Origin: Anaeromyxobacteraceae bacterium
GTDB taxonomy: Bacteria > Myxococcota > Myxococcia > Myxococcales > Anaeromyxobacteraceae
Length of the DNA: 64,000 bases
Direction: 5' to 3'
Assembly: GCA_047602405.1 (NCBI GenBank)
Contig: JASGHJ010000001.1
Coordinates: 576,001 to 640,000, forward strand
Both the position numbers and the translations under genes were made by a program. The number at the start of each line of letters is the position of its first letter. The stretch's first letter is position 1. Of the stretch, positions 16,772-34,696 are shown piece by piece. The notes below the pieces were generated by a model. It was not told the origin of the DNA. It did not search any database and saw nothing but the letters and a program-made list of their open reading frames with translations.

Positions 16772-16795
16772 CGTGCGATTATAGCCCTTCGAGCC

Positions 16796-17470
16796 GTGAC
16801 CCCGCTCACCACCCCGGGCTTCGAGGAGGCCGTCTCCGCGCTGCGGCGCGCGCTCGCCGCGCGGGCGCCGGACCCGCTCGAGGTCCCCGCGTTCCGGCGG
16901 GCGGCGGTGCTCGTGCCGCTGCTCGCCCGGCCGGACGGACCCACGGTCCTCTTCACGCGCCGCTCGCAGGATCTCCCGCACCACCGGGGCGAGATCTCCT
17001 TCCCGGGCGGCGGGCTCGACCCGGGCGAGTCGCCCGAGGCGGGGGCGCTGCGCGAGGCCCACGAGGAGGTCGGGCTCCTGCCCGAGGCCTCCGAGGTGCT
17101 GGGCCGCCTCGACGACCTCCCCTCGATCGCGCGGTACGTGGTGACGCCGGTCGTCGCCGCGATCCGCTCCCCGCCTGCGGCGTTCACGCCGGCCGCGGGG
17201 GAGGTGGCGGAGGGCTTCGAGGTGCCGCTCTCCCGGCTGCTCGATCCTGCGATCCGCAGGGCCGCGCTCTGGGACCCGTCGCGCCTTCCGCCCGAGGTGC
17301 CGGTCGCGCTCATCCGCGCGCGCATCCCGTTCGAGGAGACGGACGGCTCGGGGAAGTGGAAGGTCTGGTCGTTCGCCGCCGACCCCGAGCGGGTGATCTG
17401 GGGGCTCACCGCCCGGATCGTGGCCACGCTCCTCGACCGAGCGTTCGGGCCCGGCACGCGGAGCGCCTAG
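16796..17470 (+). CDS. Nudix hydrolase, CoA pyrophosphatase type
   Basis: [17 protein letters not shown], Nudix box [10 protein letters not shown] and IWGLTA. Confidence 0.92.
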
Positions 17471-19591
17471 TAGTAGTAGTTCCGCTGAGCGACGCGCAGG
17501 TGCGCGACCCCGTCGGTGTCGATCCAGGCGACGCTGAGCCCGAAGCTCTCCTCGACCGTGTAGCTCGCGACCTGCCCACCGGCGGGGATCGCGGGCAGCG
17601 ATCGCCAGGTCCCGTCTGCGTTCCGCTCCCGGACCTCGAAGCGGTCGAGGCCCGCCTCGCGCACCACGAACACGAGCTTCGACCTCGCGAAGCGCGGCCA
17701 GCGCGCCGCGCGCCCAGGCGACGCGTCGATGACGATCGGATCGGACAGGTAGCCGTACGGCGTGCACTCGCGGCCCACGATCCCACCCGCCTCGTCCCAG
17801 ACGACCCAGGTCGTGAGGCCACCGTCGGCGAGCGCGGGGCGGCCCGCCACCTGGGCCGGGTCCACGTTGATGGGCCCCACCGGCGCCGAGAGGCTCGTGT
17901 GGTCGTAGTTCGCGAAGCGGAGGAAGAGCTGGGCCGGGCCGCCGGGCGGGGCCTCCAGGGTCGCGAGGGTGCTCCCGTTCACTGCGGCTCCGCGCAGGTC
18001 CTGGATCGCGCCCGTCGCGATCGGGGCCTGGTTCGCCCACCGGTAGCGCACGAGCGAGCCGCCGCCCGGGGCCGGCTCGGCCCAGGCGACGCCGGCGAGG
18101 ATCGCCACCCCCACGTCCTGGAGCGCCGGCCCAGGGCTGGCGAGGGCCGTGATGGCCGGCGCCGCCGCGAGCACGGTCCGCCCCGCGGTCCGGCTCCAGC
18201 GGACGACGCGATCGCCCCCGGCGTCGGACTCGACCCAGAGGAGGCGTCCCACGTCGCCGGAGCCGTCGAGCGCGCGCACCGCCCCCGCGGACAGCACCTC
18301 GCCGACCGCAAGCGGCGAGGGCTGGGGGCCGGCGGCTCCGGCGAAGCGCCGGACCGCGCCGTCCGCGCCGCGGACCAGGAGGGTCACGTCGTCGGGTAGC
18401 ACGAAGCTGCGGTACCCGATCGCGAGTTCCACGGACGTGGTGCCGGGGGACAGGAGGGCGGGCCAGGGGACTCGCCAGGCGGGGGCGTCGAAGGTGCAGG
18501 CGCCGGGGCCCATCACGAGCGGGTTCCCCGCGCGGTCCACGTACGGCGGGGGCGCGAACGACAGCCTGGCCGGGAAGGCGACAGGCCGGTCCACGTAGAA
18601 TCCGCTGGGACGTGAGGCCGTTCCAGCCCGCTCCGCCCACCGGCTCGGAGAACGTCGCGAGCGCGCCCGCGCTCCAGTCCGCGTCGTCGGGGCGCGTCTC
18701 CACCGAGCAGGTGCAGGTGGGCGAGGTGTTGTCGGTGGCGAGCTCGAGGGGCGGGCTCGCCAGGAACCCGGGCGCGTCCACGGCGAGCGCGTGGGGTCCA
18801 TCGGCGAGCGGCGTCGTGTCGAGGCCGACGCTCCCGCCGATCGGGAGGTCGGCGCGCTTCACGCCATCGACCAGGAGCTCGAGCGGCCCGACCACCCCGG
18901 CGTAGACGGGGGGCGCCGCCACGGTGACGGTCCCGCGCAGCAGCCCGGAGCCGGAGACCGTCGGCTGGGGCAGCGTGGGCGCGGTCCAGCGTTGCGAGAA
19001 GGCCGCGCACGAGGCGTGGACGTCGCAGACCTCACCGGAGAGCTCGACGGGCCCTGCGTCGAGCGCCTGGACACCTTCGATGTCGGCGCGGAGCTCGGCC
19101 CCCACGATGCTCGAGGTCACGTCGAGGCGCCCCCCCGGCCCGCTCGCGACCAGCCCGTGCACGGAGCCGAGCCTCTCGAAGAACGTGACCCGAGCCTGGA
19201 ACAGCCGCTCGGCGCCCGTCCGGTAGAGGACGTCGGGGGGCTCGACCGCCAGGATCACGGGAGGCGGCCACGCCACCACCACCCGCGTCGCCTCGCTCTC
19301 GAGGCGGATCCCTCCGTCGTACGCGCGGGCGGAGAGCGCATACGCGCCGTTCACGGGCAGCACGAGCAGGTACGGCTCCCCGGCGTGGACCCGGCCCGGC
19401 AGCTCGGCGCCGTCGAGGAGCAGGCGCACCTCGCCCTGGGCGCCGGTGGTGACGAGCACCTCGAGCCGGCCGTCCACCACCGTGACCGACCCGGCGGGCT
19501 CGAGCCGGACGGTGCCAGGGTGATCGAAGAGCTTGCAGCCCTCCGCGACGAGGAGGCCGAGCGCGAGGACGGAGCGGAGGGGGGCGGTCAT
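17467..19591 (-). pseudogene. Ig-like domain putative lipoprotein, split by a frameshift near 18600 (or a sequencing indel)
   Basis: The ATG 19591 frame ([19 protein letters not shown]...[13 protein letters not shown]...TFSEPV) loses coding character near 18600. The frame ending at 17467 (FYVDRPV...YVDRAGNPL...) then takes over. The span is 2125 bp (3n+1). Confidence 0.6.
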
Positions 19592-20652
19592 GGCGTCGCG
19601 TCCAGCTGGAGTCCGAACCAGATCCGGGGGGGGCCGTCGAGGGCGCTCGCGGCGCCCGCGTCGAGGGCCATGCGGCCGACGCGCCACCGGGCGCCCACGA
19701 TCGCGAGCACCGGCGTGTCGCTGCCCCGGCGCGAGGCCCAGACCTCGCCGAGGAGGTCCACCCGCGGGGCGACCTGGCTCGTGACCGCGAGCGCGACGCC
19801 GGTCGCGCCCATCGCCCCGAGCCCCTCCGCGCCCTCGAAGATCGGCCCGGCGTGGAGGGTGACGAGGAGCGCCGGGTAGGTGAGGCTCACCGTCCCCGAC
19901 AGGAAGCCCTGCACGCTGCCGCCGGAGCCCGCCCGCACGTGCAGGCCACTCGCGAGCCGCAGGTGCTCGCCGAGCGCAGCCCCGCCGCGCAGCGCCCCGA
20001 AGACGTTGCGGCCGTAGGACGCCGCGTGAAGCACCGGCAAGGTGGTGCCCGCGGTCAAGGCCGCGTGCCCACCCAGCCCGACGGTGGCGGAGAGATCTGC
20101 GGCCTCGACGAGCGCGAGGCGCAAGCCGCCGGAGGGCACCAGCACGGCCGAGGGCGCGGTGAGGTGCCGGTCCGAGATGTCGGCGGGCCGGGTGCGCTCG
20201 ACCACCCGGAGGATCCGCGCCACCTTCTCGTCCGGCAGGGTCCACTGCACGTCGCCGCCCACCTCCAGGAGGACGGCGCCGCCGGTCCGGCCGAGGAGCC
20301 TGCCGCGCAGCACCTTGCCGTCGCGGAGGACCACGCACGCGAGCGGCGGCCCCTCCGGCAGCGAGCCGTGGGGGACGGTGACGTCGAGGAGCCCGGCCAC
20401 GTCGGCGGCCCTCGAGAAGACGACGTCGCCGTTCGGCCGGCGGACCGCGACCACCCCGGGCCGCGAGCGCAGGATCTTCCCCTGGATCGTCTCGCCGTCC
20501 GCGAGGACGAGGTACCCCTCCGCGCCGGGCAGCGCGGGCGCGAGCGCGATCTCGCCGAGCGGCGCTTCCGGTGCCGTCGCCGGGGCCTGCGCCCGCGCCG
20601 TGGTGGCGACGGCGGCGACGAGCAGCGCGGCGGCGGTCTGGAAGAGGCTCAT
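19588..20652 (-). CDS. Secreted / outer-membrane hypothetical protein
   Basis: ATG at 20652 after GGAGG; signal peptide, two 'L.DG....G....' small domains and a beta-strand-rich C-terminus. Confidence 0.65.
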
Positions 20653-20996
20653 CCCGGATTCCTCCGGAGAGAAAAGCACACCAGGCGGCCCGGCGTTGAG
20701 TCTTCGGAGGTCCCGGCCCGCCGGGCGAGACCGGGTCGCGACCCGGGGAGAGGCCCACACGGGGGCGGGGGTGTGGCTCGCGATCCGATCGCGGTGCTTC
20801 GCCTCGGTGGAGGCGAGCCTGCCGACATCCGCCACGTCCAACCGAAGCAGCAGCACCCCAGGGACCGGAACATCCTCCCGATCCGCGCGTTCCACCCTCT
20901 CGTGGTGAACCAGCTCAGTTCGGACGAACCCGGGCGGAGCGCGCGTGAGCGCACAGCGGACCCGGGATCGATCCGGATGCGGTGGCGCACTAGGAT

Positions 20997-22622
20997 GTGA
21001 ACGTGACCAGGTCAGCGTACGTCGCAGTCGCCGCCATCGCCGTGCTCGCCACCGCCTGTGGCGGCGGAGGCTCGAAGAAGTCCTCCGGTCCCTCCGAGGG
21101 CTCCGCGTGCACCAAGCAGACGGACTGCGGCAGCTCGCTCCTCTGCCATGCGGGCAAGTGCGCGGCGTCGCTGCCGGCCTCGCCGAGCTGCGCGAGCCCG
21201 GGCGGCGCTCCCTCGCTGCTCGCCGGGCCGGCGGTGGTGGCGAGCGATCCTGGCGTGGGCGTCTGCGGGTTCGGCGTCCAGACGCCGATCTTCCCCGCCG
21301 GCGCGGGCCTCGGGCAGGTGCAGGACCTCGGGACGCACACGGTCGGCGACGTCGTGACCTTCACGGTCCCCGCGGACACGTGGAGCATCACCATCTACGA
21401 GCAGGAGGTCGGCGGGGTGGCCCCGAAGACCATCACCTTCTCGACGAGCTCCGGCGGCTCCTCCACGCAGCCGAACGTGGCGGTGCCGGACCAGGTGAAG
21501 TCGCCCACCGGCCTCGTGATCTTCGACGACGTCGGGATGTCGAGCCCGCCCTCGGGCCCGAACGGCTACGACGACTACACGAAGGCCTTCTATGGGGTGC
21601 ACTTCGGCGCCGCGACGCCGTACTCGGGCACCGCGACCTTCCCGAACGCCTCGAAGGGGCTCGAGCTCGCGCGCGTCGCGGGCTCGCTCGTCCCGGGCAC
21701 GTGGTCGCTCCGGGTGAACGACTACGCCTACGAGTGCGCGACCGCGTACTCGAACTGCACCGCCGGCGCGAGCACCACGAGCCAGTACCGGGTCCACGTC
21801 GTCACGCACGGCCCGCTCCGCAGCACCGGCAAGCTCGACCTCGACGTCTACCTCGCCACCGACAACGCGAACGGCACCGCCCGGCTCACCGCCGCGCAGG
21901 CGGTGAACGACGCCGGCATGAAGCGGCTCTTCGCCTCGGCGGGCACGTTCCTCGGGCGGGCGGGGCTCTGCCTCGGCACGGTCACGTTCCACGACCTGCC
22001 GGACTGGGCGCGGAGCCGCTTCGCGCTCACGACCTACGACGACACGCAGACCTGCGACGAGACGAACCAGCTCTTCCGGCTCGCGCTCACGCAGGACTCC
22101 GGCGTGCACCTCTTCTTCGTGGACGATCTCGTCGACGCGAACGCCGGCGGCAGCCAGGTCGGGACCCTGCTCGGCCTCGACGGCGCGATCCCCGGCCCGT
22201 CGGGCCTCCCCGGCTCGCCCACGAGCGGCGCGATCGTGCCGATCGGCGGCGTCAGCTCGGGCTGCACGGGCTCGGGGCTCAACCTCGCGAGCTGCGAGGC
22301 GGACCTCATGGCCTACGTGACCTCGCACGAGGCCGGCCACTGGCTCGGGCTCTTCCACACGACCGAGTACCCGGGGACCTTCTTCGATCCGCTCGCCGAC
22401 ACTGGTGAGTGCCCGTGCAGCCAGTGTGCGACCAACAAGCCGAAGTGCGGCCAGGACCCGAACCTCGCGATGACCACGAACCTGTGCAACAAGAGCTCGG
22501 TCTGCACGGGCGGGGACAACCTCATGTTCTGGCTCGTCACCCCCGGCGCGTCGATCGGCAACCTCACCTCGCAGCAGGGCGAGGTCATCCGCCTCAACCC
22601 GGCCGTGGAGGTGAAGCCGTGA
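20997..22622 (+). CDS. Cys-rich lipoprotein zinc metalloprotease (metzincin, M43-like)
   Basis: Lipobox ATAC; HEAGHWLGLFHT (HExxHxxGxxH); Met-turn DNLMFW. Confidence 0.82.
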   Translation: MNVTRSAYVAVAAIAVLATACGGGGSKKSSGPSEGSACTKQTDCGSSLLCHAGKCAASLPASPSCASPGGAPSLLAGPAVVASDPGVGVCGFGVQTPIFPAGAGLGQVQDLGTHTVGDVVTFTVPADTWSITIYEQEVGGVAPKTITFSTSSGGSSTQPNVAVPDQVKSPTGLVIFDDVGMSSPPSGPNGYDDYTKAFYGVHFGAATPYSGTATFPNASKGLELARVAGSLVPGTWSLRVNDYAYECATAYSNCTAGASTTSQYRVHVVTHGPLRSTGKLDLDVYLATDNANGTARLTAAQAVNDAGMKRLFASAGTFLGRAGLCLGTVTFHDLPDWARSRFALTTYDDTQTCDETNQLFRLALTQDSGVHLFFVDDLVDANAGGSQVGTLLGLDGAIPGPSGLPGSPTSGAIVPIGGVSSGCTGSGLNLASCEADLMAYVTSHEAGHWLGLFHTTEYPGTFFDPLADTGECPCSQCATNKPKCGQDPNLAMTTNLCNKSSVCTGGDNLMFWLVTPGASIGNLTSQQGEVIRLNPAVEVKP

Positions 22623-23185
22623 TCGCCGCGCTCGCCGCCCTGCTCCTCTCCGCCGGACCCGCGGCCGCCGCGCCCGCCGACCCCTGTGCGCCGCGCGGCG
22701 ACGCGCGCGACGCCGACCGCACGAGCGCCTGCGAGCTCCTCGGCGCCATCGACCGCCGCGTCCCGGACGGCACGTGGCGCGCGCTCGGCCCGGTCGCCGA
22801 CGAGGTCCTCGCCGCGCTCGCCCGCGGCGGTGGGCTCGTCGTCTTCCGCGCCCGCGCGCTCGAGGCGCTCGCCGCCCGCGGCGGGGCCGAGGCCGAGGCC
22901 GCCCACCGCGCGCTCGCGATCGACGGCGCCGCGCCGATGATGGTGCGCCGGGCCGCCGTGCACGGCCTCTCCCGGCTCCTCGACGACGCCGCCCTCACGG
23001 CCGCGCTCGCGCCGCTCGCCGAGCGCGACGCCGACGGCCGCGTGCGCGCCGAGGCGAGCGAGGTGCTCGCCCGCCGCGTGCCCGCCGCCGCGTGCGCCGG
23101 CGTCCGCGCCCGCGCCTCCGCCGGCGGCGTCGAGGCCATCCGGCTCGAGCGCGCGCTCCGGGCCTGCGGGGCCGCGGAGCGGTAG
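22619..23185 (+). CDS. Secreted HEAT-repeat-like protein
   Basis: GTG overlaps the upstream [20 protein letters not shown] and VRAEASEVL repeats. Confidence 0.65.
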   Translation: MIAALAALLLSAGPAAAAPADPCAPRGDARDADRTSACELLGAIDRRVPDGTWRALGPVADEVLAALARGGGLVVFRARALEALAARGGAEAEAAHRALAIDGAAPMMVRRAAVHGLSRLLDDAALTAALAPLAERDADGRVRAEASEVLARRVPAAACAGVRARASAGGVEAIRLERALRACGAAER

Positions 23186-24055
23186 ATGCTCCTCGCCGGG
23201 CTCACCCTCGCGGCCGCGCTCGCCGGCGGCCCGCCGGTGCCGGACTCGGCCTGCGCGGCCTACCTGCAGGTCTACCCGTCCGCGCCGCTGCCCAAGGCGG
23301 GCGGCGAGGCCGCCTGCGGCGAGCTCCTCGCGGAGGCCTGCGACGCGGGCCGGCGGCTCGCCTGCGCCGAGCTCGGCGTGCTCCTCGAGGAGGGCGTCGT
23401 GCTGAAGCGTGACGGCCCCCGCGCGCTCGCGTTCCTCGAGCGCGCCTGCGACGCGGGCGTGGGCTGGGCCTGCGGCGAGCTCGGCCTGTTCCTCCTGCGC
23501 CGGGGCGAGGGCGAGCGCGGGCGTGCGGCGCTGCGCGAGGGCTGCGCGATCGGGAGCGGCGCGGCCTGCACGGCGCGGCTCGCCGACGTGACCGACCCGG
23601 AGGCGGCGCGCCGGCTCGCCGAGCGCGCCTGCGACCTCGGCGACGTCGACGGCTGCGTCGCGCTCGCGGCGCGCACGCCGGGCGGCCCTGCGCCGGCGAC
23701 GCTCGACCGCGCCTGCAGGCTGGGCGCGGCCGAGGCGTGCGCGGCGCTCGGCGCCGAGGGGATCGGCAAGCGCTGCGACGGCGGCGACGGCCAGGCGTGC
23801 CTCCAGCTCGGCGTGCTCCTCGAGGAGGGCCGGGTGATGAAGGCCGACGGCGCGGCGGCGGCGGCGCGCTACGAGCGCGCGTGCACGGCGGGGAAGGCGG
23901 AGGCGTGCTGGCGGCTCGGCCGCCTGCACCGGCTCGGCGCCGGCGTGGCGCACGACGAGGCCCGGGCGAGGAAGCTGCTCGCCGGGGCGTGCGCGGACGG
24001 CGAGCGGGAGGCGTGCCGGCTGCTGAACGAGGGCGAGGCGGAGCTGCCCCGCTAA
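23186..24055 (+). CDS. Secreted Sel1-like (HcpA-type Cys-rich) repeat protein
   Basis: Repeated A...ERAC.AG...AC..LG motifs; the third base of its TAA stop is the first base of the element's left TIR. Confidence 0.88.
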   Translation: MLLAGLTLAAALAGGPPVPDSACAAYLQVYPSAPLPKAGGEAACGELLAEACDAGRRLACAELGVLLEEGVVLKRDGPRALAFLERACDAGVGWACGELGLFLLRRGEGERGRAALREGCAIGSGAACTARLADVTDPEAARRLAERACDLGDVDGCVALAARTPGGPAPATLDRACRLGAAEACAALGAEGIGKRCDGGDGQACLQLGVLLEEGRVMKADGAAAAARYERACTAGKAEACWRLGRLHRLGAGVAHDEARARKLLAGACADGEREACRLLNEGEAELPR

Positions 24056-26252
24056 GAGCTGTCCCATAAGTCCCGCTTGAGCTTGTGAGGGACGGAGACA
24101 GCGGCACGGTGTCCGCGAGGTGGCGGCCGCGTCGGCGATGAGGGAAGCATGCGCCGGAAGCGAGCGAGGTCGCGCGCGGAGAGGGCCGCGAGGACGAGCA
24201 GTCGGCGGGTCGGCAGGAGATGCGTGGTTACTGGATCGTGAAATCTCGGGCGTTGCCCCGGTTCACGCGAGGGCCGGACCTGAACGCCCTGTCAGGGGGT
24301 TGGCGTAGCGTGAAGATGTGGAAGTCGAGGCCAAGCGGACCCGCGGTCCGAACCGCCAGGAGCCCTGGGCGCGCCGCCCGGAGGACGGCGTGTCGGTCCT
24401 GCGGCTCGCGCTCGACGTCCACGATCCCCTGCAGCGCAGGCGGCTCGAGAGGATGTTCGCCGACGCGTACCGGGTGCGGCGGGCGTTGCAGCGGGCGGCC
24501 CGCAACCGTGCGCGGGCCTACTGGGCGGCGAGGCACGAACGGGCCCGGGATGGCGCGGGCACGCGCGACCGGCTCGGCCTCAGCCGCGACGCGCTCGAAC
24601 ACGCCGCCTACGCCTGCCTCGACGCGGCGCCTTACCTCCGGCGTTTCGTCACGAAGGCGCTCGCGATGCACCTCGCCGATTCGGTCTGGTCGGCGGTGGA
24701 GCGGCACCTGTTTCCGGACGCGACCGGGAAACGCCAGGGGCTGCTCCACGTCGGGCGGTGGTTCGACTTCAGGAGGCTGCCCGGTCGCGCGCGCTCGCAT
24801 ACGAAGGATCGGAAGTGGGAGACCTTCCGGCTCCACGGCTCGCTCGTCGGTCGTCGTGAGGTCGCGTCGGCTCCGAGCGGGCGCGTCGACTGGTGGGCCT
24901 ACCAGGGTCCGCTGGTGCTCGTGTTCAGCGGGCTCGCCGACGGCACGCTGGTGCTTCCGGTTCGACTCCCCACGGCTCCCTGCAACCAACCCATCCTCGA
25001 CTACCACCTCGCCGACCCGAGCCTCTGGCACAAGGTCGATGTCGTCCGCACCCGAGCGCCACACGTACCTGGCGGCTGGCGCTACGAAGCCCACCTGATG
25101 GTGCTGAAGGAGCCCTACGTCTCCCCTGCGACGAGGGCGCGCCGCGCGGAGGTCGCCCTCGCCGAGCCCGGCCGCGTGGCTGGAGTGGATGTCAACGTGT
25201 CGAACCTGACCGTCGCCTCCCAGGTGGCGGGAGGCGATCTTCGGCTCACGCGGATCGAGCGCGACGCGGCCACGAAGGAGCGGGACCGTGGCCGGGGACG
25301 CCGCGAGCGTCGCAGGCAGCGAGCCCTGGAGCGCTCCCGCCGGGTCGCCAACAGCGAGCAGTACCGGCTGTCCAAGCGGCAGGAGAAGCGCGCCCGTCGG
25401 CGCGCCGCCGCGGGCCTCCCGCCCGTGGAGGTCATCCCCCAGGGGCCGAGGGTCGCGAGGTCCGATGGCGCTCCGCTCCAGGCCTACCGCGGCGACCGGC
25501 TCACCCGTCGTCACCGGAGGCTCCGGGCGGAAGAGGTCGCTGACGCCGCCGCTGCTGCACAGGCTCGGCGCGACGGTGCCCGGCGGGTGGCCGCGGAGGT
25601 CGTCCGCACGCACGGCTACAAGGTCTTCGTCGAGGAAGGCCCCATCTCCGCCTGGGCGCGACACTGGGGCCGCGGCGTCGCCGCTTTCACGCCGGGCCTG
25701 CTCGTCTCGGCCATCGACCGCGAGGCCCGGGCCGTCGCAGCCGTCGCCAAGGCCAGAGGAGGCGTGGTCCGGATCCCCACCCGCACGACCACGCTCTCCC
25801 AGCGCTGCCCCTGTGGCGCCCGCGTACCGAAGACCCTCGCCGTCCGGGTCCACCGCTGTCCGCGCTGCGGCCTCGAAGGTGACCGCGACGCCGTCTCCGC
25901 GGTGCTCGCGAGCTTCGTCGTGCTCGACCTCCCCGGCGAACCCGCTTCGGCGCGCGTCGACTACGCCGCCGCGCGCGAGTCCCGCCCCGACCTCCAGCGC
26001 CTCCTCACTCCCTACCTGCCGCTCGGGTGGCAAGACACCCGGTCCGAGTCAAACGACCTCTTCGTCCGCGAGGCCAGTTGCCCCGCGTGGCGGACGTCCA
26101 CACCGGCCTCTTCGCCGGTGGCTCGGCGAACCGCCGGAACGGCCACGGGCCCTACCCGGGATGAGCCTCTCTCACGAGAGTCCACGTCCGAGCGGGCCCG
26201 ATGGCGAACCGGACTGCCCCACTCGCCGCTTGGCGAATTATGGGACAGCTCT
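24055..26252 (+). mobile_element. Non-autonomous TIR-bounded element carrying only tnpB
   Basis: AGAGCTGTCCCATAA (24055-24069) and TTATGGGACAGCTCT (26238-26252) are perfect inverted repeats, each flanked by TA (24053-24054 and 26253-26254). No transposase ORF is recognisable inside. Confidence 0.85.
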
Positions 26253-26255
26253 TAG
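24318..26255 (+). CDS. tnpB: Large TnpB-like RNA-guided RuvC nuclease (645 aa)
   Basis: RuvC-I VAGVDVN (D at 25188), Arg-rich helix, RuvC-II VFVEE (E at 25632), zinc finger SQRCPCG...HRCPRCG, RuvC-III DRDAVSA (D at 25887). Confidence 0.85.
   Translation: MEVEAKRTRGPNRQEPWARRPEDGVSVLRLALDVHDPLQRRRLERMFADAYRVRRALQRAARNRARAYWAARHERARDGAGTRDRLGLSRDALEHAAYACLDAAPYLRRFVTKALAMHLADSVWSAVERHLFPDATGKRQGLLHVGRWFDFRRLPGRARSHTKDRKWETFRLHGSLVGRREVASAPSGRVDWWAYQGPLVLVFSGLADGTLVLPVRLPTAPCNQPILDYHLADPSLWHKVDVVRTRAPHVPGGWRYEAHLMVLKEPYVSPATRARRAEVALAEPGRVAGVDVNVSNLTVASQVAGGDLRLTRIERDAATKERDRGRGRRERRRQRALERSRRVANSEQYRLSKRQEKRARRRAAAGLPPVEVIPQGPRVARSDGAPLQAYRGDRLTRRHRRLRAEEVADAAAAAQARRDGARRVAAEVVRTHGYKVFVEEGPISAWARHWGRGVAAFTPGLLVSAIDREARAVAAVAKARGGVVRIPTRTTTLSQRCPCGARVPKTLAVRVHRCPRCGLEGDRDAVSAVLASFVVLDLPGEPASARVDYAAARESRPDLQRLLTPYLPLGWQDTRSESNDLFVREASCPAWRTSTPASSPVARRTAGTATGPTRDEPLSRESTSERARWRTGLPHSPLGELWDSS
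26040..26252 (+). ncRNA. Putative omega-RNA (reRNA) scaffold overlapping the tnpB 3' end
   Basis: Nested complementary segments: CGGACGT/ACGTCCG (26091-26097/26184-26190), TTCGCCG/CGGCGAA (26111-26130), CTCTC/GAGAG (26167-26180) and TCGCC/GGCGA (26223-26236). This is the expected position for a TnpB guide scaffold. Confidence 0.55.
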
Positions 26256-26521
26256 TGCCTCCCGGCCCCGTACGCCCCGAGCGTAGCCGCCGCGGAGCGG
26301 CGGCGGAGACGAGGGGCGGGCTTGAACGCCGCCCGCTTCTTCTCGTTCCCCGAGAGCGCGGCCACCTCGATCGAGCCCCGCTCCCCCACGCCCTCGCCGC
26401 GGAGCTCCTCGCTGAAGAGCTGGACGGCCTCGCCGGCGTCCCACGCCGCGAGGTGGGCGGTGGTGGTGCGCACCGGGGAGCTGAAGGTGCAGCGGAACAG
26501 GGTCTCGCGCTCGACGGTCAT
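26252..26521 (-). CDS. Small hypothetical protein
   Basis: 89 aa with coding-like codons; the third base of its TAA stop is the terminal base of the right TIR. Confidence 0.6.
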   Translation of the reverse strand: MTVERETLFRCTFSSPVRTTTAHLAAWDAGEAVQLFSEELRGEGVGERGSIEVAALSGNEKKRAAFKPAPRLRRRSAAATLGAYGAGRH

Positions 26522-26626
26522 GGCGCGCTCACTGTACCGGCGCGCCTCGCAACGCGACCGTGACGAGATCGGGGCGAAGGTGACGAGATCGTGACGCCCG
26601 GGATCCCCGGGCGGGACGGCGCTGCG

Positions 26627-27037
26627 TCAGGCCGCGCCCTCGGCAGGGCGCGCGGAGCGGCGCGAGGCGGTGAGCGCGTCGACCGCCTCCACGAGCGCGC
26701 GCTCGTCGACCGGCTTCGTGAGGAACGCGTCGGCGCCCGCGGCGAGGAGGCCGTCGCGCGACTGCTCGCGGCCGGAGATGCCGATGATCGGCACGCGGGC
26801 GAGGCGCGCATCGGCCGAGGCGCGCAGCGCGCGGATCACCTCGGAGCCGCTCATGCCCTCCATGATCTCGTCGATCACGCAGAGGTCCGGCGGGTCGCGG
26901 TGCGCCTCGGCGAGGGCGAGCGGGCCGGACTCGACGCCCACGGGCACGTGGCCCGCACCCTCGAGGATCATGTCGAGCAGGCGGAGGATGAGGTGGTGGT
27001 CGTCGACGACCAGGATGCGGAGCGACTCGGCGGCCAT
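26627..27037 (-). CDS. Single-domain response regulator (CheY-like)
   Basis: ILVVDD, phosphoacceptor in CVIDEIM, IIGISG and FLTKPVD. Confidence 0.9.
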   Translation of the reverse strand: MAAESLRILVVDDHHLILRLLDMILEGAGHVPVGVESGPLALAEAHRDPPDLCVIDEIMEGMSGSEVIRALRASADARLARVPIIGISGREQSRDGLLAAGADAFLTKPVDERALVEAVDALTASRRSARPAEGAA

Positions 27038-27160
27038 GCGCGCCGCACGGTAGCCCACCCTCCTTCCCCACGCGCGGCCACACCCCGAAGGGTCGAGGTG
27101 AGAACGAGGCGCGCAGCGCCCGAGGCGGGCGCCGCATCACGACGGATCTTGCGGGGCCGC

Positions 27161-27349
27161 TCAGCGCGTGTGGCCGGACGGATCGGAGGACGCCTGCGCC
27201 CACATCTGCCCGTCGTCGCGCGAGCGCTCCATGATGGCGACGCCGATCGCGCACGCGAGGAACACCGCGAGCGCGAGCATCCACGGGCGGAACTCGAGCA
27301 TGCGCTCGAGCCAGGACGTGGGGGCCGGGGCGGGCTTCCGGGCGGGCAT
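27161..27349 (-). CDS. Small membrane protein
   Basis: 62 aa with one TM helix (WMLALAVFLACAIGVAIM); GGAG upstream. Confidence 0.45.
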   Translation of the reverse strand: MPARKPAPAPTSWLERMLEFRPWMLALAVFLACAIGVAIMERSRDDGQMWAQASSDPSGHTR

Positions 27350-27508
27350 GGGACGCTGCTCCACGGTGGGATCAGTAGACCGGGGAAGGGGGGTGGCGCA
27401 ACCCCTTGACCGCCGTGGCCCCCGCATCGTTCCGGCCCTCCTCCGGAGGGGTGCCGGACACCCTGTTCATGCAAGGATATCAGCGGGTTTCAGCTACACT
27501 CCCGGCCC

Positions 27509-28912
27509 ATGCTCGCCGCCCTCGCCGCCGCCCTCGCCGTGTCGGCCTCCCCCGCCCCGCTCCGCGCCGTCCCGAACGTCATGCGGGTCGACCTCGTCCA
27601 CACCGGCGACGCCACCGGCGAGCGCTTCGGGCTCGATCGCGTGGTGCTCGAGCCGCTCTCGTGGTCCGGCCGGATGGACCGGCTGATCGACGACACCGGG
27701 CTCGGGAAGTACCAGGTCGAGGTCCGCGACCTCGCGACCGGGCGGGCGCTCTACTCGCGCGGCTACTCCAGCGTCTACGCGGAGTGGGAGACGACCGACG
27801 AGGCGCGGCGGCTCCAGCGCGCGTTCCAGGAGTCGGTGCGGTTCCCCGCGCCGGACGCGCCGGTGCAGGTCGTGATCCGCAAGCGCGATCCGCACGGCCT
27901 CTGGCGCGAGGTCTGGAGCGTGCCGGTCGATCCGAAGGACCGCGCGATCGTCACCGCGCGCCCGGCGTCGCCCGGGCCGGTGATCGAGCTCCTGAAGAAC
28001 GGCGAGCCCGGGCAGAAGCTCGACCTCGTCCTCCTCGGCGACGGCTACACCGCGGCCGAGCGCGGCAAGTTCGAGAAGGACGCCCGCCGCCTCCTCGCGG
28101 CGCTCTTCGACAAGGAGCCGTTCCGCGCCCGCAAGGCCGACTTCAACGTGTGGGGCATCGTGCCGCCCGCCGAGCAGTCCGGCGTCTCGCGCCCGCTCAC
28201 CGGCGTCTCCCGCGCGAGCCGCATCGGCGCGAGCTACGACGCGTTCGGCTCGGAGCGGTACGTGCTGTCGTTCGAGGAGCGGTCGCTGCGCGAGGTCGCC
28301 TCCTTCGCGCCGTACGACTTCATCGCCATCCTCGTGAACGGCAACACCTACGGCGGCGGGGGCATCTACGGGCTCTACACCACGGTCGCCGCGGACTCGC
28401 TCTGGGCGTCCTACATCTTCGTCCACGAGCTCGGCCACTCGCTCGGCGGCCTCGGCGACGAGTACTTCACCTCCGACGTCTCGTTCCTGCCCGCCGGCGA
28501 GGCGAAGCCCGAGCCGTGGGAGCCGAACACGACCGCCGACCCGAAGGCGTCGAAGTGGGCCGACCTCCTCACGCCCGGCGTGCCGCTCCCGTCGCCCTGG
28601 CCGAAGGACGCCTTCACCGCGCGCGCGAAGGAGCTGCAGAACCAGCGCAAGAAGCTCCGCGAGACGAACCGGCCCGAGGCCGAGATGGACGCGCTCTTCT
28701 CGCTGCAGAAGAAGGAGGAGACGGCGCTCCTCGGCGCCGCCCCGCTCGCCGGGAAGGTCGGCGCGTTCGAGGGCGCGAACTACGAGGCCTCGGGCTACTA
28801 CCGGCCCTCGGTCGACTGCGTGATGTTCTCGCGCGACGAGGTCCCGTTCTGCCCCGTCTGCCAGCGCTCGCTCGGACGGGTGATCGACCAGTACGCCGGC
28901 CCGCGCCGGTAG
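27509..28912 (+). CDS. Peptidase M64 (IgA-peptidase-like) family metalloprotease
   Basis: Signal peptide; LLGDGYT, YGGGGIY, HELGHSLGGLGDEY, FEGANY...YRP..DCVM...FCPVC. Confidence 0.92.
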   Translation: MLAALAAALAVSASPAPLRAVPNVMRVDLVHTGDATGERFGLDRVVLEPLSWSGRMDRLIDDTGLGKYQVEVRDLATGRALYSRGYSSVYAEWETTDEARRLQRAFQESVRFPAPDAPVQVVIRKRDPHGLWREVWSVPVDPKDRAIVTARPASPGPVIELLKNGEPGQKLDLVLLGDGYTAAERGKFEKDARRLLAALFDKEPFRARKADFNVWGIVPPAEQSGVSRPLTGVSRASRIGASYDAFGSERYVLSFEERSLREVASFAPYDFIAILVNGNTYGGGGIYGLYTTVAADSLWASYIFVHELGHSLGGLGDEYFTSDVSFLPAGEAKPEPWEPNTTADPKASKWADLLTPGVPLPSPWPKDAFTARAKELQNQRKKLRETNRPEAEMDALFSLQKKEETALLGAAPLAGKVGAFEGANYEASGYYRPSVDCVMFSRDEVPFCPVCQRSLGRVIDQYAGPRR

Positions 28913-28933
28913 TGCCGCCGGCCCCGCGTGAAC

Positions 28934-28981
28934 TCCCCCTCTCCCCCCGCGGAGCGAGGGGAGAGGGCCGGGGTGAGGGGG
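28934..28981. repeat. BoxC-like palindromic intergenic repeat
   Basis: CCCTCTCCCC-N11-GGGGAGAGGG followed by CCGGGGTGAGGGG, the layout of a widespread short repeat family. Confidence 0.7.
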
Positions 28982-29112
28982 CACGACCCACTACAATTTA
29001 GCTCCGTAACTTCGGGTCCTTGCCGACCCGCACTGGGGGTACCCTTGCCTTGCGCGTTGCGTTATGATTCCTGAGTCAACGCGCCGCACCCCGCTCCCCC
29101 TCGGAGGGCCCC

Positions 29113-30855
29113 ATGACCGACAAGAAGACCGCCAGCTTCATGCAGTCGCTCTGCGCCGGCGAGATCGAGGAGGAGATCCTCCTCCCCTACCCCGAGCCGC
29201 GCGCCGAGGAGAAGGAGACCCTCCAGGCCGTGTTCGGGACCCTGAAGTCCCTGCTCGGCAACCGCGACAAGGACTTCCGCGCGTGGGACCGCGCCGGCGA
29301 GTTCACGCCGGCGTTCGTGGACGAGCTCAAGGAGGCGGGGCTCTTCGGCCTCGTCATCCCGGAGCAGCACGGCGGCCTCGGGCTCGGCGCGATGGCCTAC
29401 TCGCGGGTGATCCAGGAGCTCGGCAAGTACGACGGCTCGACGGCGGTGACCGTCGGCGCGCACAGCTCGATCGGCATGCGCGGCCTGCTCCTCTTCGGCA
29501 ACGAGGAGCAGCGCGCGCGTTACATGCCGAAGCTCGCGACCGGCGAGATGATCGCCGCGTTCTGCCTGACCGAGCCGGGCGCCGGCTCCGACGCCGCGGG
29601 CATCAAGACGAACGCGGTCAAGGACGGCGACGACTGGATCCTGAACGGCGAGAAGATCTGGATCACGAACGGCGGCATCGCCGACTTCTTCACCGTCTTC
29701 GCGAAGACCTCCTCCGAGGGGCGCGGGCACATCACCGCGTTCATCGTGACGCGCGACATGAAGGGCGTCACGACCGGCCCGCACGAGGACAAGATGGGCA
29801 TCCGCGCGTCCTCGACCACGACGGTGGTCCTCGAGGACGTGCGCGTCCCCGCCGCGAACGTGCTCGGCGAGGTCGGCAAGGGCTTCAAGGTCGCGATGAA
29901 GATCCTCAACTCCGGCCGCACCGGCCTCGGCGGCGGCTCGGTGGGCGGGATGAAGCGCCTCATCGGCTTCTCGGTGGAGCAGGCGAAGGGCCGCGTGCAG
30001 TTCGGCCAGCCCATCTCCACCTTCGCGACCATCCAGGACAAGATCGGCCAGATGGTCATCGACGCCTACGCCTCCGAGAGCGTCGTGAACCTCGTGGCGG
30101 GCCTCGTCGACCGCGGCTTCGAGGAGTACGCGGTCGAGGCCGCCATCTCGAAGGTGCTGTCGACCGAGATGCTCTGGAAGACGTCCGACGAGGCGCTGCA
30201 AATCGCCGCCGGCCAGGGCTTCATGCGCGAGATGCCCTACGAGATGGCGATGCGCGACTGCCGCATCAACCGGATCTTCGAGGGCACGAACGAGATCCTG
30301 CGCCTGTTCATCGCGCTGACCGCGATGAACGACGTCGCCGAGGACCTCAAGGAGATCGCCGCCTCCACCCGCGGCATCTTCGACGACCCGATCAAGGGCT
30401 TCGGGGTCCTCTCCGACTACGCGCGCAAGCGCGCCTCGCTCGTCACGGGCCTCCGCCGCGAGAAGGGCAAGTGGACGATGCTCCACGCCTCGCTCGCCGA
30501 GGAGGCCGCGCTCCACGAGGAGGGCACGACCGAGCTCGCGAAGGCCGCCGACCGGATCCTCCGCAGGTTCGGGAAGAAGATCATCGGCCAGCAGCTCGTC
30601 ACCCGCCGGCTCGCCGACATCATGATCGACCTCTTCGCCATGTCCGCGGTGCTCTCCCGCGTCTCGACGAAGATCGACGACCACGGCGAGGCCGCCGCGT
30701 CGGTGGAGCGCGAGATCGCGAAGGCCTTCGTGCGCCAGGCGAAGCGCCGCGTGGACCGCAACTTCGCCGCCATCGACGACAACGAGGACGAGGCCGTGAA
30801 GTCCCTCGCGAAGCACGTCCTCGAGGTCGGTCGCTACGAGTGGGACAACGTCTGA
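29113..30855 (+). CDS. Acyl-CoA dehydrogenase (ACAD9/VLCAD-like, with C-terminal extension)
   Basis: AFCLTEPGAGSDA, LNGEKIWITNGG, KMGIRASST and RIFEGTNEILR motifs. Confidence 0.95.
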   Translation: MTDKKTASFMQSLCAGEIEEEILLPYPEPRAEEKETLQAVFGTLKSLLGNRDKDFRAWDRAGEFTPAFVDELKEAGLFGLVIPEQHGGLGLGAMAYSRVIQELGKYDGSTAVTVGAHSSIGMRGLLLFGNEEQRARYMPKLATGEMIAAFCLTEPGAGSDAAGIKTNAVKDGDDWILNGEKIWITNGGIADFFTVFAKTSSEGRGHITAFIVTRDMKGVTTGPHEDKMGIRASSTTTVVLEDVRVPAANVLGEVGKGFKVAMKILNSGRTGLGGGSVGGMKRLIGFSVEQAKGRVQFGQPISTFATIQDKIGQMVIDAYASESVVNLVAGLVDRGFEEYAVEAAISKVLSTEMLWKTSDEALQIAAGQGFMREMPYEMAMRDCRINRIFEGTNEILRLFIALTAMNDVAEDLKEIAASTRGIFDDPIKGFGVLSDYARKRASLVTGLRREKGKWTMLHASLAEEAALHEEGTTELAKAADRILRRFGKKIIGQQLVTRRLADIMIDLFAMSAVLSRVSTKIDDHGEAAASVEREIAKAFVRQAKRRVDRNFAAIDDNEDEAVKSLAKHVLEVGRYEWDNV

Positions 30856-30916
30856 CGGTCCGCCCCTCGTCTCCGGGCCGCTGCGCGGCCCTACGCTCGG
30901 GGTGAACGGTTCCAGT

Positions 30917-30954
30917 GAAAGACGCCCGGCCCCGCGAGGGGCCGGGCGTTTCTC
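30917..30954. terminator. Probable bidirectional intrinsic terminator
   Basis: Perfect 12-bp stem ACGCCCGGCCCC-GCGA-GGGGCCGGGCGT with short A/T flanks, between convergent genes. Confidence 0.75.
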
Positions 30955-30969
30955 ATGTGATCCCCCCGG

Positions 30970-31665
30970 TCAGGCCTCCAGGAACGCCCCCACGAGCCGG
31001 CTGAAGCCCTCGTCGCCGAGCTGGGCGGGGACCTCGGTGGCCTTCGGGAGCTCGCCGCCGTCCGCCGCTGCGAGGCCGAGCTCGCCCTCGACGAACCGCG
31101 CGAGGCGGGCCTTCTCGGCCGTGAGCCAGGCCTTCGTGTCGGCGCCCTTCGGGAACCTGAGGTAGCTCGGCTCGCCCGGCGCCACGTTGAAGAGCCACTC
31201 GCCGCCGCGCTCCGACTTCACGCGGCCCGGATCGCGCTCGACGCCGCGGTTGACGGCCTTCACGGTGCCGTCGACCGGCGCGGGCACGCGGACGGAGAGC
31301 CGGCCGGCGTGCAGCACCGCGACGGGCTCGCCGCGGCGCACGCGTGCGCCGACGCGGGGCAGGTCGACCGCCGTCACCGACGGCAGGAGCTGCTGCCCGA
31401 AGTCGTCGAGGCCGACCGCGAGGCCGTCGCCCTGCGGCGCGAGCCAGGTGTGCGTCGGCGCGTGGAAGGCGTCCTCGCGGTACTGGAGGTCGCCCGCGGT
31501 GGCGCGCTTCGTCGCGGTCGCGCGGCCCAGCGCGAGCCGGGCGTACGCGTACGCGATGGCGGGGATCGCGAGGACGAGCGCCCCGGCGACGAAGAGGATG
31601 AACCGGCCGGTGAGGCCGGCGAGCACGATGCCGAGGAAGGAGAGGATGGAGATCGAAGTCGTCAT
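30970..31665 (-). CDS. Membrane-anchored glycine cleavage H-protein-like protein
   Basis: HTWL, VGLDDF, VDLPRVG and APVDGTVKAVN GcvH-fold motifs after N-terminal TM segments. Confidence 0.8.
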   Translation of the reverse strand: MTTSISILSFLGIVLAGLTGRFILFVAGALVLAIPAIAYAYARLALGRATATKRATAGDLQYREDAFHAPTHTWLAPQGDGLAVGLDDFGQQLLPSVTAVDLPRVGARVRRGEPVAVLHAGRLSVRVPAPVDGTVKAVNRGVERDPGRVKSERGGEWLFNVAPGEPSYLRFPKGADTKAWLTAEKARLARFVEGELGLAAADGGELPKATEVPAQLGDEGFSRLVGAFLEA

Positions 31666-31703
31666 GGTGGCGTTCCCTCGCGGTGGTCCACACGTCCTTC
31701 ATG

Positions 31704-31718
31704 GCAAGCCACGGGCCA
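31704..31718 (-). promoter_or_regulatory. Putative sigma-54 -24/-12 promoter
   Basis: The minus strand reads TGGC-CCGTGGC-TTGC, about 40 nt upstream of the ATG at 31665. Confidence 0.6.
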
Positions 31719-31922
31719 GCCCTCGGCCGCCCGAAAGGCCCTGATCACGCGGGCCTGCGGGGCCGCGGCGCGCTGTCGCGTGGAAGAACTCAGCGATCGG
31801 GCGGGGGTCCGGGAGACGAACCCTCGTGATCACGGGCACCTGGGCCGTTTCGTTTCATCGCTCTACGGCTGCTGAGAAACGATACGCCCAGGGATCGCGG
31901 GGTTAGCGGACCCCCGGTCCGC

Positions 31923-32906
31923 TCACGTGCGGCGAAACGCCGGGATCGCGCCGCGCGCCGCGCGCTCCATCGGGAGGAGCGCGGCGTACAGCGCGTCGTG
32001 GACCGGCACCGGGACACCCGCCTCGCGGGCGAGCCGGACGAGCGCGCCGGGCTGGTCCTCGAGCTCCGAGGGCAGGCCCGCGGCGAGGTCGCGCTGCATG
32101 GACACCGTCGCGTCGGGCGGCGAGGCGTCGATGCGTGCCATGACCCTCGCGACCGTCTCGTCCGGCACCGGCACCCCGCGCGCGCGGCCCACGGCGACGA
32201 CCTCGCGGACCGCGGCCTCGAGGAGCGCGCGCGCCTCCGGCACCGCGCGGAGCGGCCCGCACGGCGTGCGGGCCGCGGCGGCGACGGTGCCCCACGGCTC
32301 GACGAGCGCGAACTTCTCCCACGCGGCGCGCTCGACGTCCGCCTCGACGATCGCCTCGGCGCCCGCGGCCCGCAGGAGCCCGGCGAGCGCCTCGAGCCGG
32401 CTCGAGGGCCGATCCTTCCCGGCGCCGAGCTCACCGGTGGTCACGCGCGGCGGCGCGCCGACGTGCTTCACCCGCCCCGGCGCCTCGACCCAGGAGAGCA
32501 TGTGCGCGAGCCCGCCCACGACCTGCCCGGCGGGCAGCGCGGCGAGGAGCCGGCCGGCCGAGAGCACGCCGTTCTGCAGCGGCACCGCGAAGCCGCCCTG
32601 GGCTCCTCGACGCGGGGCGAGCAGCGGGGCGAGCGTGGGCGCGACCGCCTCCACCTGCCAGGCCTTCACCGCGAGGAGCACGGCGTCCGCGGGCGCGAGC
32701 CCGGAGGGCGCGTCGGCGAGGCCGCCCCGGAACCCGTCCGGCGGGACCGTGAAGCTCGCGACGGTGGAGTCCACGCGCAGGCCCTCCGCGCGGATCGCGG
32801 CGAGCCCCGCGCCGCGCACCACGAGCCCGACCTCCACGCCGCTCCGCGCGAGGAGCCCCGCGAGCAGCCCGCCCACGCCGCCCGCGCCCACGATGGCGAT
32901 CCGCAT
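31923..32906 (-). CDS. panE: 2-dehydropantoate 2-reductase
   Basis: IVGAGGVGG, LLAVKAWQ, LQNG, WEKF and SMQRDL..G.PSELE motifs. Confidence 0.9.
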   Translation of the reverse strand: MRIAIVGAGGVGGLLAGLLARSGVEVGLVVRGAGLAAIRAEGLRVDSTVASFTVPPDGFRGGLADAPSGLAPADAVLLAVKAWQVEAVAPTLAPLLAPRRGAQGGFAVPLQNGVLSAGRLLAALPAGQVVGGLAHMLSWVEAPGRVKHVGAPPRVTTGELGAGKDRPSSRLEALAGLLRAAGAEAIVEADVERAAWEKFALVEPWGTVAAAARTPCGPLRAVPEARALLEAAVREVVAVGRARGVPVPDETVARVMARIDASPPDATVSMQRDLAAGLPSELEDQPGALVRLAREAGVPVPVHDALYAALLPMERAARGAIPAFRRT

Positions 32907-32978
32907 GGCCCCATCATCGCCGGTCCCGCACCGCCGCGCGAGGCTTGCCGCCGAGGCGGCGCTCCCGAAGGTTCGAGC

Positions 32979-33539
32979 GTGCGCTTCGTCCTCCTCCTCG
33001 CCCTGCTGTCGGTCCCCGCCGTCTCACACGCCCAGGAAGCCTCGGACCCCGCCGCCGGTGCCATCGTCACCGACGAGGGCGCCACCGAGCTCCTCGGCCG
33101 GGTCTACCGCAAGGGCGACGTGATCCAGCTGCCGGAGGGCACGCTCACGATCGAGGAGGACGCACACCCCGGCGAGGAGCAGGGTGTCGGCTCCTTCACG
33201 GTGATCACGCCGACGGTGGTCACCCCCGGTGAGGGCCCGGTGGCGGCGGCCCCCGTCGAGGCCCGTCCCGTCGACGACGGCGCATGGGCGTCCTCCACCG
33301 GGCGCGGCGCGGCCCCTCCCTGCGAGGCGGAGCGCAGCGCGTTCATCGCCGAGCTGTGGCGCGGGTGGGGCGTCGAGGTCGAGGACCCCGCCGCGTTCCT
33401 CGAGGGGCTCGCCGGCGGGGACCCGGGCCTCGTCCTCTCCTGGCTCGCCTCGGCCGAGCAGACCATCCGGCCGATCGCCTGGTCGTCCGGGCTCCGGGCG
33501 CGCGCCGACGCGCTCGCCGCCTGCGCGCGGCAGCGGTGA
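32979..33539 (+). CDS. Secreted hypothetical protein
   Basis: GTG at 32979; signal peptide RFVLLLALLSVPAVSHA. Confidence 0.55.
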   Translation: MRFVLLLALLSVPAVSHAQEASDPAAGAIVTDEGATELLGRVYRKGDVIQLPEGTLTIEEDAHPGEEQGVGSFTVITPTVVTPGEGPVAAAPVEARPVDDGAWASSTGRGAAPPCEAERSAFIAELWRGWGVEVEDPAAFLEGLAGGDPGLVLSWLASAEQTIRPIAWSSGLRARADALAACARQR

Positions 33540-33576
33540 GCTTCCCCGCGGGGCCGTTCCGTGTCATTCGGTTGCC

Positions 33577-34194
33577 GTGGAGACGGCCACCGAGTTCCTC
33601 CTGCGCTGGCACTACCTCGGCCTCTTCCTCGTGCTGCTCGTCGAGGAGGGCGGGGTGCCGCTGCCGGTGCCCGGCGACCTCTTCATCGCGGCCATGGGCG
33701 TGCTCGCCTACCAGGGGCTCGCGTCCTTCTGGCCGACCGCCGCGATCGTCACCGCCGCGACCGTGCTCGGCGCCGGGTTCCTCTTCCTCGTGTCGCGCCG
33801 GCTCGGGCGGCCGCTGCTCCTCCGGATCGCCCGCCGCTTCGGCTACACCGAGGCGCGCGAGGCGCGCGTGGAGGGCTGGGTCCAGGGCCAGGGGCCGTTC
33901 GCGATCGTGGTGGGCCGGCTCATCCCCGGGCTCCGCATCGTGCTCACGGTCGCGGCGGGCGCGCTGCGCGTCGACGGGCGCGTGTTCGCGATCGGCACGA
34001 CGATGGCGGGCGTGGTCTGGGCCACGCTCTACTTCTGGCTCGGGTGGTTGCTCGCGAAGGGCTACCGCACGCTCGGCCCCGGAGCGGGCGCCTGGCCGCT
34101 GCTCGCCGGCCTCGTCGTCGCCGGCCTCGGCCTGCTCGCGTGGCGCCTCGCGCGGAGCCGGCGCGGCCAGGAGGACGAGCCCACGCCGCGCTGA
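33577..34194 (+). CDS. DedA family membrane protein
   Basis: EEGGVPLPVPGD, GRLIPGLR and AAGAL motifs. Confidence 0.9.
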   Translation: METATEFLLRWHYLGLFLVLLVEEGGVPLPVPGDLFIAAMGVLAYQGLASFWPTAAIVTAATVLGAGFLFLVSRRLGRPLLLRIARRFGYTEAREARVEGWVQGQGPFAIVVGRLIPGLRIVLTVAAGALRVDGRVFAIGTTMAGVVWATLYFWLGWLLAKGYRTLGPGAGAWPLLAGLVVAGLGLLAWRLARSRRGQEDEPTPR

Positions 34195-34278
34195 GCCGGA
34201 CGGAGGGTGTACGCTCCGGGACGGCCGACCTCCATCCGGTGCTCGCACATCCACGCACCGCGAAGCAGGTTTCCCGAG

Positions 34279-34647: not shown

Positions 34648-34696
34648 GGCCGGGCCCGGAGGTGGGCGGTCCGCGCCGCCCACCCCCTCGAGTCGC

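Follow-up and report, generated by a model that had tools for sequence, protein, structure and literature searches.

TnpB proteins associated with DDE transposases have been placed in six branches, DDE-1 to DDE-6, which have inverted repeats and solo copies. In the passages of that survey on these branches, omega-RNA use similar to that of other TnpBs is inferred for them (Altae-Tran et al. 2023, PMC10691335). A 2026 review, in its part on such hosts, names ISL2, IS630 and IS1031 as DDE hosts of TnpB. It describes elements that combine a DDE transposase with OMEGA components (from obligate mobile element-guided activity) as rare in prokaryotes, and suggests inflexible target recognition as the reason (PMC13565253). 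Our literature search, with subscription-only papers outside its scope, yielded that survey, the review and Fanzor papers only, and found no RNA fold, target-adjacent motif (TAM) or assay for a DDE-TnpB element. How a TnpB benefits the element that carries it has been established for scarless elements of the Y1 and serine-recombinase types. In ISDra2, the structural description indicates a pseudoknot using positions -5 to -3, with a non-canonical -2A (Nakagawa et al. 2023, PMC10097598). Absorption of a fixed flank base into the scaffold was shown for an IS607 TnpB (ISXfa1), and the account of that work predicts that Fanzors absorb the terminal inverted repeat (TIR) plus the target-site duplication (TSD) (Yoon et al. 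2023, PMC10711439). Here we analyzed a 64,000-nucleotide stretch of an Anaeromyxobacteraceae bacterium genome (the window; contig JASGHJ010000001.1, positions 576,001 to 640,000), which contains an IS5-family transposon encoding TnpB. Our analysis suggested that positions 26024-26255 are probably a conserved, covarying omega-RNA scaffold of this TnpB, which ends in TA plus G, with a guide from 26256 and a CTAG TAM.

An inverted-repeat search indicated that 15-bp TIRs bound the transposon at 24055-26252, with TA present on both sides. Both the TIRs and the short TA duplication agree with the IS5 family. TA is preceded by C in 23 of 26 candidate left ends (about three of the 26 are offset or spurious), and bases farther out are variable. 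Two of four orthologous empty sites in this genome contain a single CTAG. Together these data indicate that the insertion target is CTAG and that TA is duplicated. The left junction CTA would then be the source of the TAM, as CTAG at the empty site.

Alignment of homologous right ends revealed a conserved segment. The alignment of 29 ends (71% column identity) starts at the hairpin at 26024, about 16 nucleotides upstream of the 5' boundary of 26040 proposed in an initial annotation of this DNA, and ends at CTTAG. RNAalifold predicted 51 pairs on it, 29 with two-sided change. Two of its pairings were rejected: that of 26042-45 with the TIR (42/81 held-out cells), where an extended P2 holds instead, and 26125-28/26215-18, which has no notable two-sided change and competes with P2. 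A model built from the refined fold matched 52 of 53 loci, missing L059. With a duplicate and the remnants L020 and L052 removed, 49 distinct ends were aligned by fitting to the model, 21 of them unused in its training. Paired cells in these 49 ends, followed by the 21 held-out ends in brackets, are 291/294 (125/126) for P1, 291/294 (125/126) for P2, 233/238 (95/99) for P5, 194/196 (82/84) for P7 and 209/221 (73/79) for P8. P3 and P4 are 92% and 80% paired, and CG, GC and UA swaps are found in P2 of distant homologues.

For an all-against-all covariation scan, 37 of the 49 ends were aligned with MAFFT without fitting to the model, 12 long or divergent ends being left out, and substitutions shuffled on the tree served as the null. 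Seven pairs have E<0.05 and nine E<=1, all located in the proposed fold and distributed over five helices. Pair 26028-26037 in P1 is among the significant ones, and five of the seven belong to the P5-P8 domain. The same scan on an upstream coding control gave no significant pair. G-U combinations outnumber A-C by 88 to 10 (41 to 10 without one invariant pair), indicating that the compensatory helices form on the tnpB-sense strand. Compared to shuffled sequences, folding is stronger for 26024-26255 (z -3.1, 0/200 shuffles) than for 26040-26300 (z -2.1); in a 74% GC genome, folding energy by itself is modest evidence. Comparison of the right ends thus supports a structured RNA overlapping tnpB, as in OMEGA systems, and this conserved folded RNA is likely the guide-RNA scaffold of the element's TnpB.

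The initial annotation had proposed an omega-RNA-like scaffold overlapping the tnpB 3' end, and covariation supports it. Its inclusion of the TIR is likewise supported by the homologous right ends, the covariation and the predicted pseudoknot described below. Every motif that it listed is present where it said, and the set nests. The structured RNA is borne out by covariation across homologous right ends; the long-range stems listed are not. The 5' hairpin P1 is not among its stems. Its CTCTC/GAGAG stem (26167-71/26176-80) is 95.8% paired, with two-sided change in 5/5 pairs. TCGCC/GGCGA (26223-27/26232-36) is stable in the window copy (probability 0.93-1.0), but is a hairpin in a region of variable length, 48.6% paired by column. 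The five long stems, of the seven proposed, have pair probabilities <=0.05, with 103/162, 152/215, 226/321, 144/197 and 168/272 paired cells in the 49 ends. On the window sequence the proposed fold as a whole reaches -60 kcal/mol, compared to -91 kcal/mol for the comparative fold and -113.7 kcal/mol for the minimum free energy. On the 29-end alignment the refined fold is 87.8% paired and the earlier one 71.4%, a comparison that favors the refined fold by construction.

The scaffold/guide boundary is suggested by where conservation ends. The final five bases are nearly invariant across 51 distinct right ends (C51, T50, T50, A50, G51), and the next, 26256, is variable (G10 C14 A12 T15). Such a sharp end of conservation at a variable flank is in line with an OMEGA system, and supports the earlier idea that the guide is taken from flanking DNA. 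Since CTTAG is nearly fixed and the following base random, 26256 is the likely first base of the guide (TGCCTCCCGG...) and CTAG the likely TAM. A guide start at 26253 (TAG...) and a CCGC or GCTA TAM, as first proposed, do not agree with the right ends, 49/51 of which have a fixed TAG, or with the bases upstream of CTA, which vary across insertions.

The P1 loop AAGA (26032-35) complements TCTT (26250-53) in 192/196 cells, a pairing that is not in the model. One pair is variable: A-U is replaced by G-C in L003 and separately in a Dactylosporangium lineage, and sister L014 has G-U. The aligned ends suggest that the P1 loop likely pairs with the terminal UCUU as a pseudoknot. An extension of it by pairing 26030-31 with 26254-55 was rejected (0/49 standard pairs). 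As T26253 lies within the predicted pseudoknot, TAG is most likely part of the scaffold, which likely absorbs the duplicated insertion site, TA plus the fixed G. By analogy with the ISDra2 register, T26253, A26254 and G26255 would occupy scaffold positions -3, -2 and -1. The same data would fit a boundary one base earlier, with a CTA TAM and a guide from the fixed G26255, because the target choice of the transposase fixes this G either way; in Fanzors, moreover, the absorbed part is described as the TSD. However, the ISDra2 register has two scaffold bases past the last pseudoknot pair, here A26254 and G26255, and IS607 TnpB absorbs its own fixed flank base. We consider the earlier boundary unlikely.

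The occupied right junction reads TTAG. To tell it from the CTAG target, the enzyme must distinguish the base at -4. At left ends the first TIR base is A (21) or G (5), and the matching T is kept in 50/51 right ends. The sole exception, L020 (G000:C2:2661891-2662048), is a remnant reading CCTAG in which tnpB and most of the scaffold are deleted; its end would be a self-target. This left/right asymmetry fits both the pseudoknot and self-protection, with the caveats that the left ends with G are closely related to one another and that there is only one exception. A search of the organism's own genome with six guides plus CTAG found no second target at 8 nucleotides.

CTAG is about four-fold rarer than expected in this genome (433 versus 1803 and 640 versus 2912 expected), which would leave fewer insertion sites and off-target TAMs. 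The insertion point is the stop codon of a Sel1-repeat gene (23186-24055). TA and the first TIR base supply TAA, which leaves the gene intact. The transposase open reading frame (ORF) likewise terminates in its own TIR, and both ORFs end in LWDSS. A palindromic repeat resembling REP (repetitive extragenic palindromic) sequences occupies 26268-26320, starting 12 nucleotides into the predicted guide. It has 123 matches of at least 45 nucleotides in the organism's own genome, and also matches many genomes of the same genus.

Several observations weigh against the omega-RNA scaffold with this boundary and TAM. Alignment A1 was the source of the fold and alignment A2 was fitted to it, so counts on both favor the fold, and many of the right ends are close kin. 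The terminal stem is weak, with 278/379 paired cells (105/153 in the held-out ends) and 77% pairing on the 29-end alignment. The single-sequence ensemble gives P2, P5 and P7 probabilities of only about 0.1-0.25. The pseudoknot consists of four pairs, three of them formed by nearly invariant TIR or target bases. None of its pairs is significant in the tree-based scan of 37 ends, and the variable pair is an uncompensated A-C in two lineages (L025; L026/L028). The other two of the four orthologous empty sites read CTAC. At the window locus the orthologue, L085, is not a clean empty site and contains a rearranged repeat. Both the TAM and the guide start are predictions.

The tnpB product matches PF07282. 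An AlphaFold2 model based on 80 sequences has a mean predicted local distance difference test (pLDDT) score of 85.9, and its top Foldseek matches are Cas12f (E 3e-11), ISFba1 TnpB (1e-9) and Cas12m; Cas12k also matched. The RuvC triad is intact, and among 80 homologues D291 is conserved in 78, E439 in 75 and D524 in 76. The TnpB/Cas12 fold together with the triad agrees with an OMEGA system. Conservation of the triad and the four zinc cysteines in 75-78/80 homologues argues against a TnpB that binds the omega-RNA without cutting, or only processes it, and thereby represses or shields the target. Such a function would be compatible with the length and divergence of the protein, which scores far below cutoff with the NCBIfam TnpB models, with the structural matches to Cas12m and Cas12k among others, and with a RuvC-III motif of DRDAVSA instead of DRDxN. 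We regard it as improbable. CRISPR type V systems (Cas12f, Cas12m, V-U) were excluded as no array adjoins the gene: there is none of more than 2.5 units within 16000-36000 and none among the direct repeats in 24000-27500.

About 120 codons had been said to follow RuvC-III; 121 follow D524. The model's confidence drops sharply at residue 570, whose codon begins at nucleotide 26025, the scaffold start, and the tail has pLDDT <50. In 29 hand-selected in-frame homologues, two core segments show variabilities of 0.29/0.22/0.46 and 0.26/0.24/0.50 at the three codon positions, and the tail 0.32/0.32/0.31. The absence of a third-position excess in the tail indicates that its conservation is at the nucleotide level. 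The 76 codons overlapping the scaffold (570-645) are thus predicted to be disordered and without codon constraint, and a role for the tail as protein was rejected on these two grounds. The tnpB stop codon TAG is formed by the duplicated TA and the flanking G. Of 50 ends, 42 could be scored, and in 33 of these the frame reaches exactly this terminal TAG, across 12 scaffold lengths of 230-269 nucleotides. Indels in the RNA therefore tend to preserve the frame, though the peptide looks unconstrained. We propose that the frame is likely retained because a stop is required ahead of the processed 3' end.

Slightly less probable still than a non-cutting TnpB is a fold that acts in cis, as an mRNA stabilizer, terminator or transposition regulator, or as a DNA structure for the transposase. 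The fold lies at the mRNA 3' end, and no promoter or terminator was found in a scan of the locus. However, it is present at the tnpB end only. All seven model matches in the organism's own genome are element right ends and none is at a left end; among 150 candidates scored, no stand-alone scaffold was found beyond these seven. The G-U usage indicates RNA, and the fold is 232 nucleotides long, with a loop that complements the final fixed bases ahead of the variable flank. DDE transposases recognize double-stranded TIRs. The nested stems of the initial annotation exist as motifs and one is confirmed, but its version, with a guide from TAG at 26253 and a CCGC or GCTA TAM, is highly improbable, as 62-73% of cells pair in five stems, whose pair probabilities are <=0.05, the only conserved base upstream of TA is C, and T26253 lies inside the predicted pseudoknot.

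Coordinates of the element's features in the window
Feature	Position	Strand	Remarks
Left junction CTA	24052..24054	+	C of CTAG target and 5' copy of duplicated TA
Left TIR, 15 bp	24055..24069	+	21-nt inverted repeat, 95% including CTA/TAG
Remnant of IS5-family (ISL2-like) DDE transposase gene	24055..24260	-	5' limit approximate
tnpB, 645 aa	24318..26255	+	RuvC D291/E439/D524; C4 zinc finger 497-517
Predicted omega-RNA scaffold, 232 nt	26024..26255	+	overlaps codons 570-645; homologous right ends
P1 hairpin	26024..26041	+	loop AAGA 26032-35 is 5' strand of predicted pseudoknot
P2 long-range stem (26044-49/26121-26)	26044..26126	+	encloses P3 (26067-74/26080-87) and P4 (26101-07/26114-20)
P5-P8 domain	26133..26213	+	P5 26133-37/26209-13; P6 26142-52/26194-205; P7 26157-60/26187-90; P8 26167-71/26176-80
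Terminal stem-loop pairing with inner TIR	26214..26248	+	weakly supported; top is TCGCC/GGCGA
Right TIR, 15 bp	26238..26252	+	within predicted scaffold
3' strand of predicted pseudoknot	26250..26253	+	last three TIR bases and T of duplicated TA
Duplicated TA and fixed flanking G	26253..26255	+	right-end alignment
Predicted guide TGCCTCCCGGCCCCGTACGC	26256..26275	+	inferred; 3' extent putative

Judged by its sequence, the window element is a transposase-deleted copy of an IS5-family DDE plus tnpB transposon, a host type that the initial annotation did not mention. Relative to the autonomous copy L016, about 590 bp of the transposase gene are deleted at 24136/24137. Two copies, L015 and L016, contain an intact minus-strand transposase ORF that matches DDE_Tnp_1, DDE_Tnp_4 and HTH_Tnp_4 (in L016, E 1.8e-10 for DDE_Tnp_1 and 4.9e-9 for DDE_Tnp_4). 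Its best NCBIfam match is the IS5-family model NF033581, at 47 bits and below the cutoff of 140. We presume from motif likeness that it belongs to the ISL2 subgroup. The TIR, the TSD and the DDE homologues exclude IS200/IS605 and IS607 elements, which have a Y1 or serine TnpA and neither TIR nor TSD.

The organism's own genome contains six copies with a full-length or frameshifted tnpB, and one remnant. The window copy has a 99.9% identical twin at another site, and by this comparison the family is recently mobile. As the twin exists despite the transposase loss, the window copy was likely moved by a transposase in trans. A DDE transposase homologue was found in 23 of loci L001-L038, and many of the remaining loci are short contigs. 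Relatives occur in records titled Anaeromyxobacter, Kofleriaceae, Myxococcales and Bryobacteraceae and in several actinomycetes, some on plasmids. They are sparse, found in 5/401 genomes of the phylum, and no relative was matched in viral contigs with the query used. An expression look-up in one run gave short contigs only, with 80-95% identity.

Several copies are rearranged. In L015 (G000:C2:797489-801976), an additional insert of about 1.7 kb lies between the transposase gene and tnpB; it matches DDE_Tnp_1_assoc and is likely a nested insertion sequence. The scaffold of L015 also lacks one base. The transposase gene of L017 (G000:C2:2701493-2704168) is internally deleted, and one segment of it is apparently inverted. 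G402 contains at least nine copies (L009, L064, L067, L069-L073, L076) with longer scaffolds of 254-269 nucleotides. Their end sequence is without the GGGAC of the TIR, and no left end matched it at up to 4 mismatches.

TnpB processes its own RNA from a transcript. In the mechanism that we propose, the RNA would derive from the tnpB transcript, or from an internal promoter, and would then load onto TnpB, and the pseudoknot between the P1 loop and the terminal UCUU would set the scaffold/guide boundary. The complex would cut alleles consisting of CTAG plus the flank, such as a donor after excision, or a sister or incoming copy that lacks the element, and repair with an occupied copy as template would restore, retain or spread the element. 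The occupied right junction, TTAG, would be spared from cutting. A rejoined donor that keeps both TA copies would read ATAG and so would escape.

Taken together, the element may represent a bacterial kind of OMEGA system that was previously uncharacterized, with TnpB fully re-tooled by a cut-and-paste IS5-family transposon. The CTAG target would be the TAM, the TIR end plus TA plus G would at once be the pseudoknot strand, the RNA 3' end and the tnpB stop, the terminal T would block self-cutting, and the frame would be held so that ribosomes stop before the guide. We advance this combined reading tentatively, as somewhat short of an even chance. If true, it would be a bacterial parallel to the adaptation of Fanzors to DDE transposons, and would provide a programmable nuclease of about 570 residues with a CTAG TAM.

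DDE-linked TnpBs were already known, as the survey's passages on them indicate (PMC10691335); the window element has an omega-RNA-like scaffold whose fold and boundary are corrected here. Rfam covariance models found no family in 23000-29000, where the lone match (E 0.97) is at chance level, and the scaffold is thus an RNA family absent from Rfam. The family is a concrete DDE-TnpB case for which scaffold, boundary, TAM and a rule of self-protection are predicted, and supplies a compact nuclease candidate. Surprise is limited by the fact that absorption of fixed flanks into the scaffold had already been described for IS607 and Fanzor.

Similar to DDE-1 to DDE-6, the window element and its relatives have a TnpB beside a DDE transposase, inverted terminal repeats, a tnpB 3' end near the element end and solo-tnpB copies with the same ends. 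Unlike the prediction made here, the passages on those branches contain no omega-RNA fold, TAM or assay. According to the portions of the ISDra2 description consulted, its TnpB (IS200/IS605) likewise has an RNA overlapping the tnpB 3' end, a disordered C-terminal tail and a pseudoknot in which the bases preceding the guide pair with a 5' element, as is predicted in our case. Its host, however, is a Y1 element without TIR or TSD, its core scaffold has 116 nucleotides compared to about 232 conserved ones here, and its TnpB has 408 residues compared to 645. In the window element, unlike ISDra2, the ORF spans the whole scaffold to the terminal TAG. As far as the cited sections describe them, IS607 TnpB, Fanzor2* and Fanzor1 similarly build a fixed flank base, or TIR plus TSD, into the scaffold, and TnpB and Fanzor2 have a pseudoknot with an apical loop, as predicted here. 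Those systems rely on a serine recombinase or occur in eukaryotes, and the pseudoknot has been lost in Fanzor1. In contrast, our element is a bacterial IS5-family transposon whose TnpB has canonical RuvC-II spacing, and its TIR, TSD and flank base would all be located in a scaffold predicted to keep the pseudoknot.

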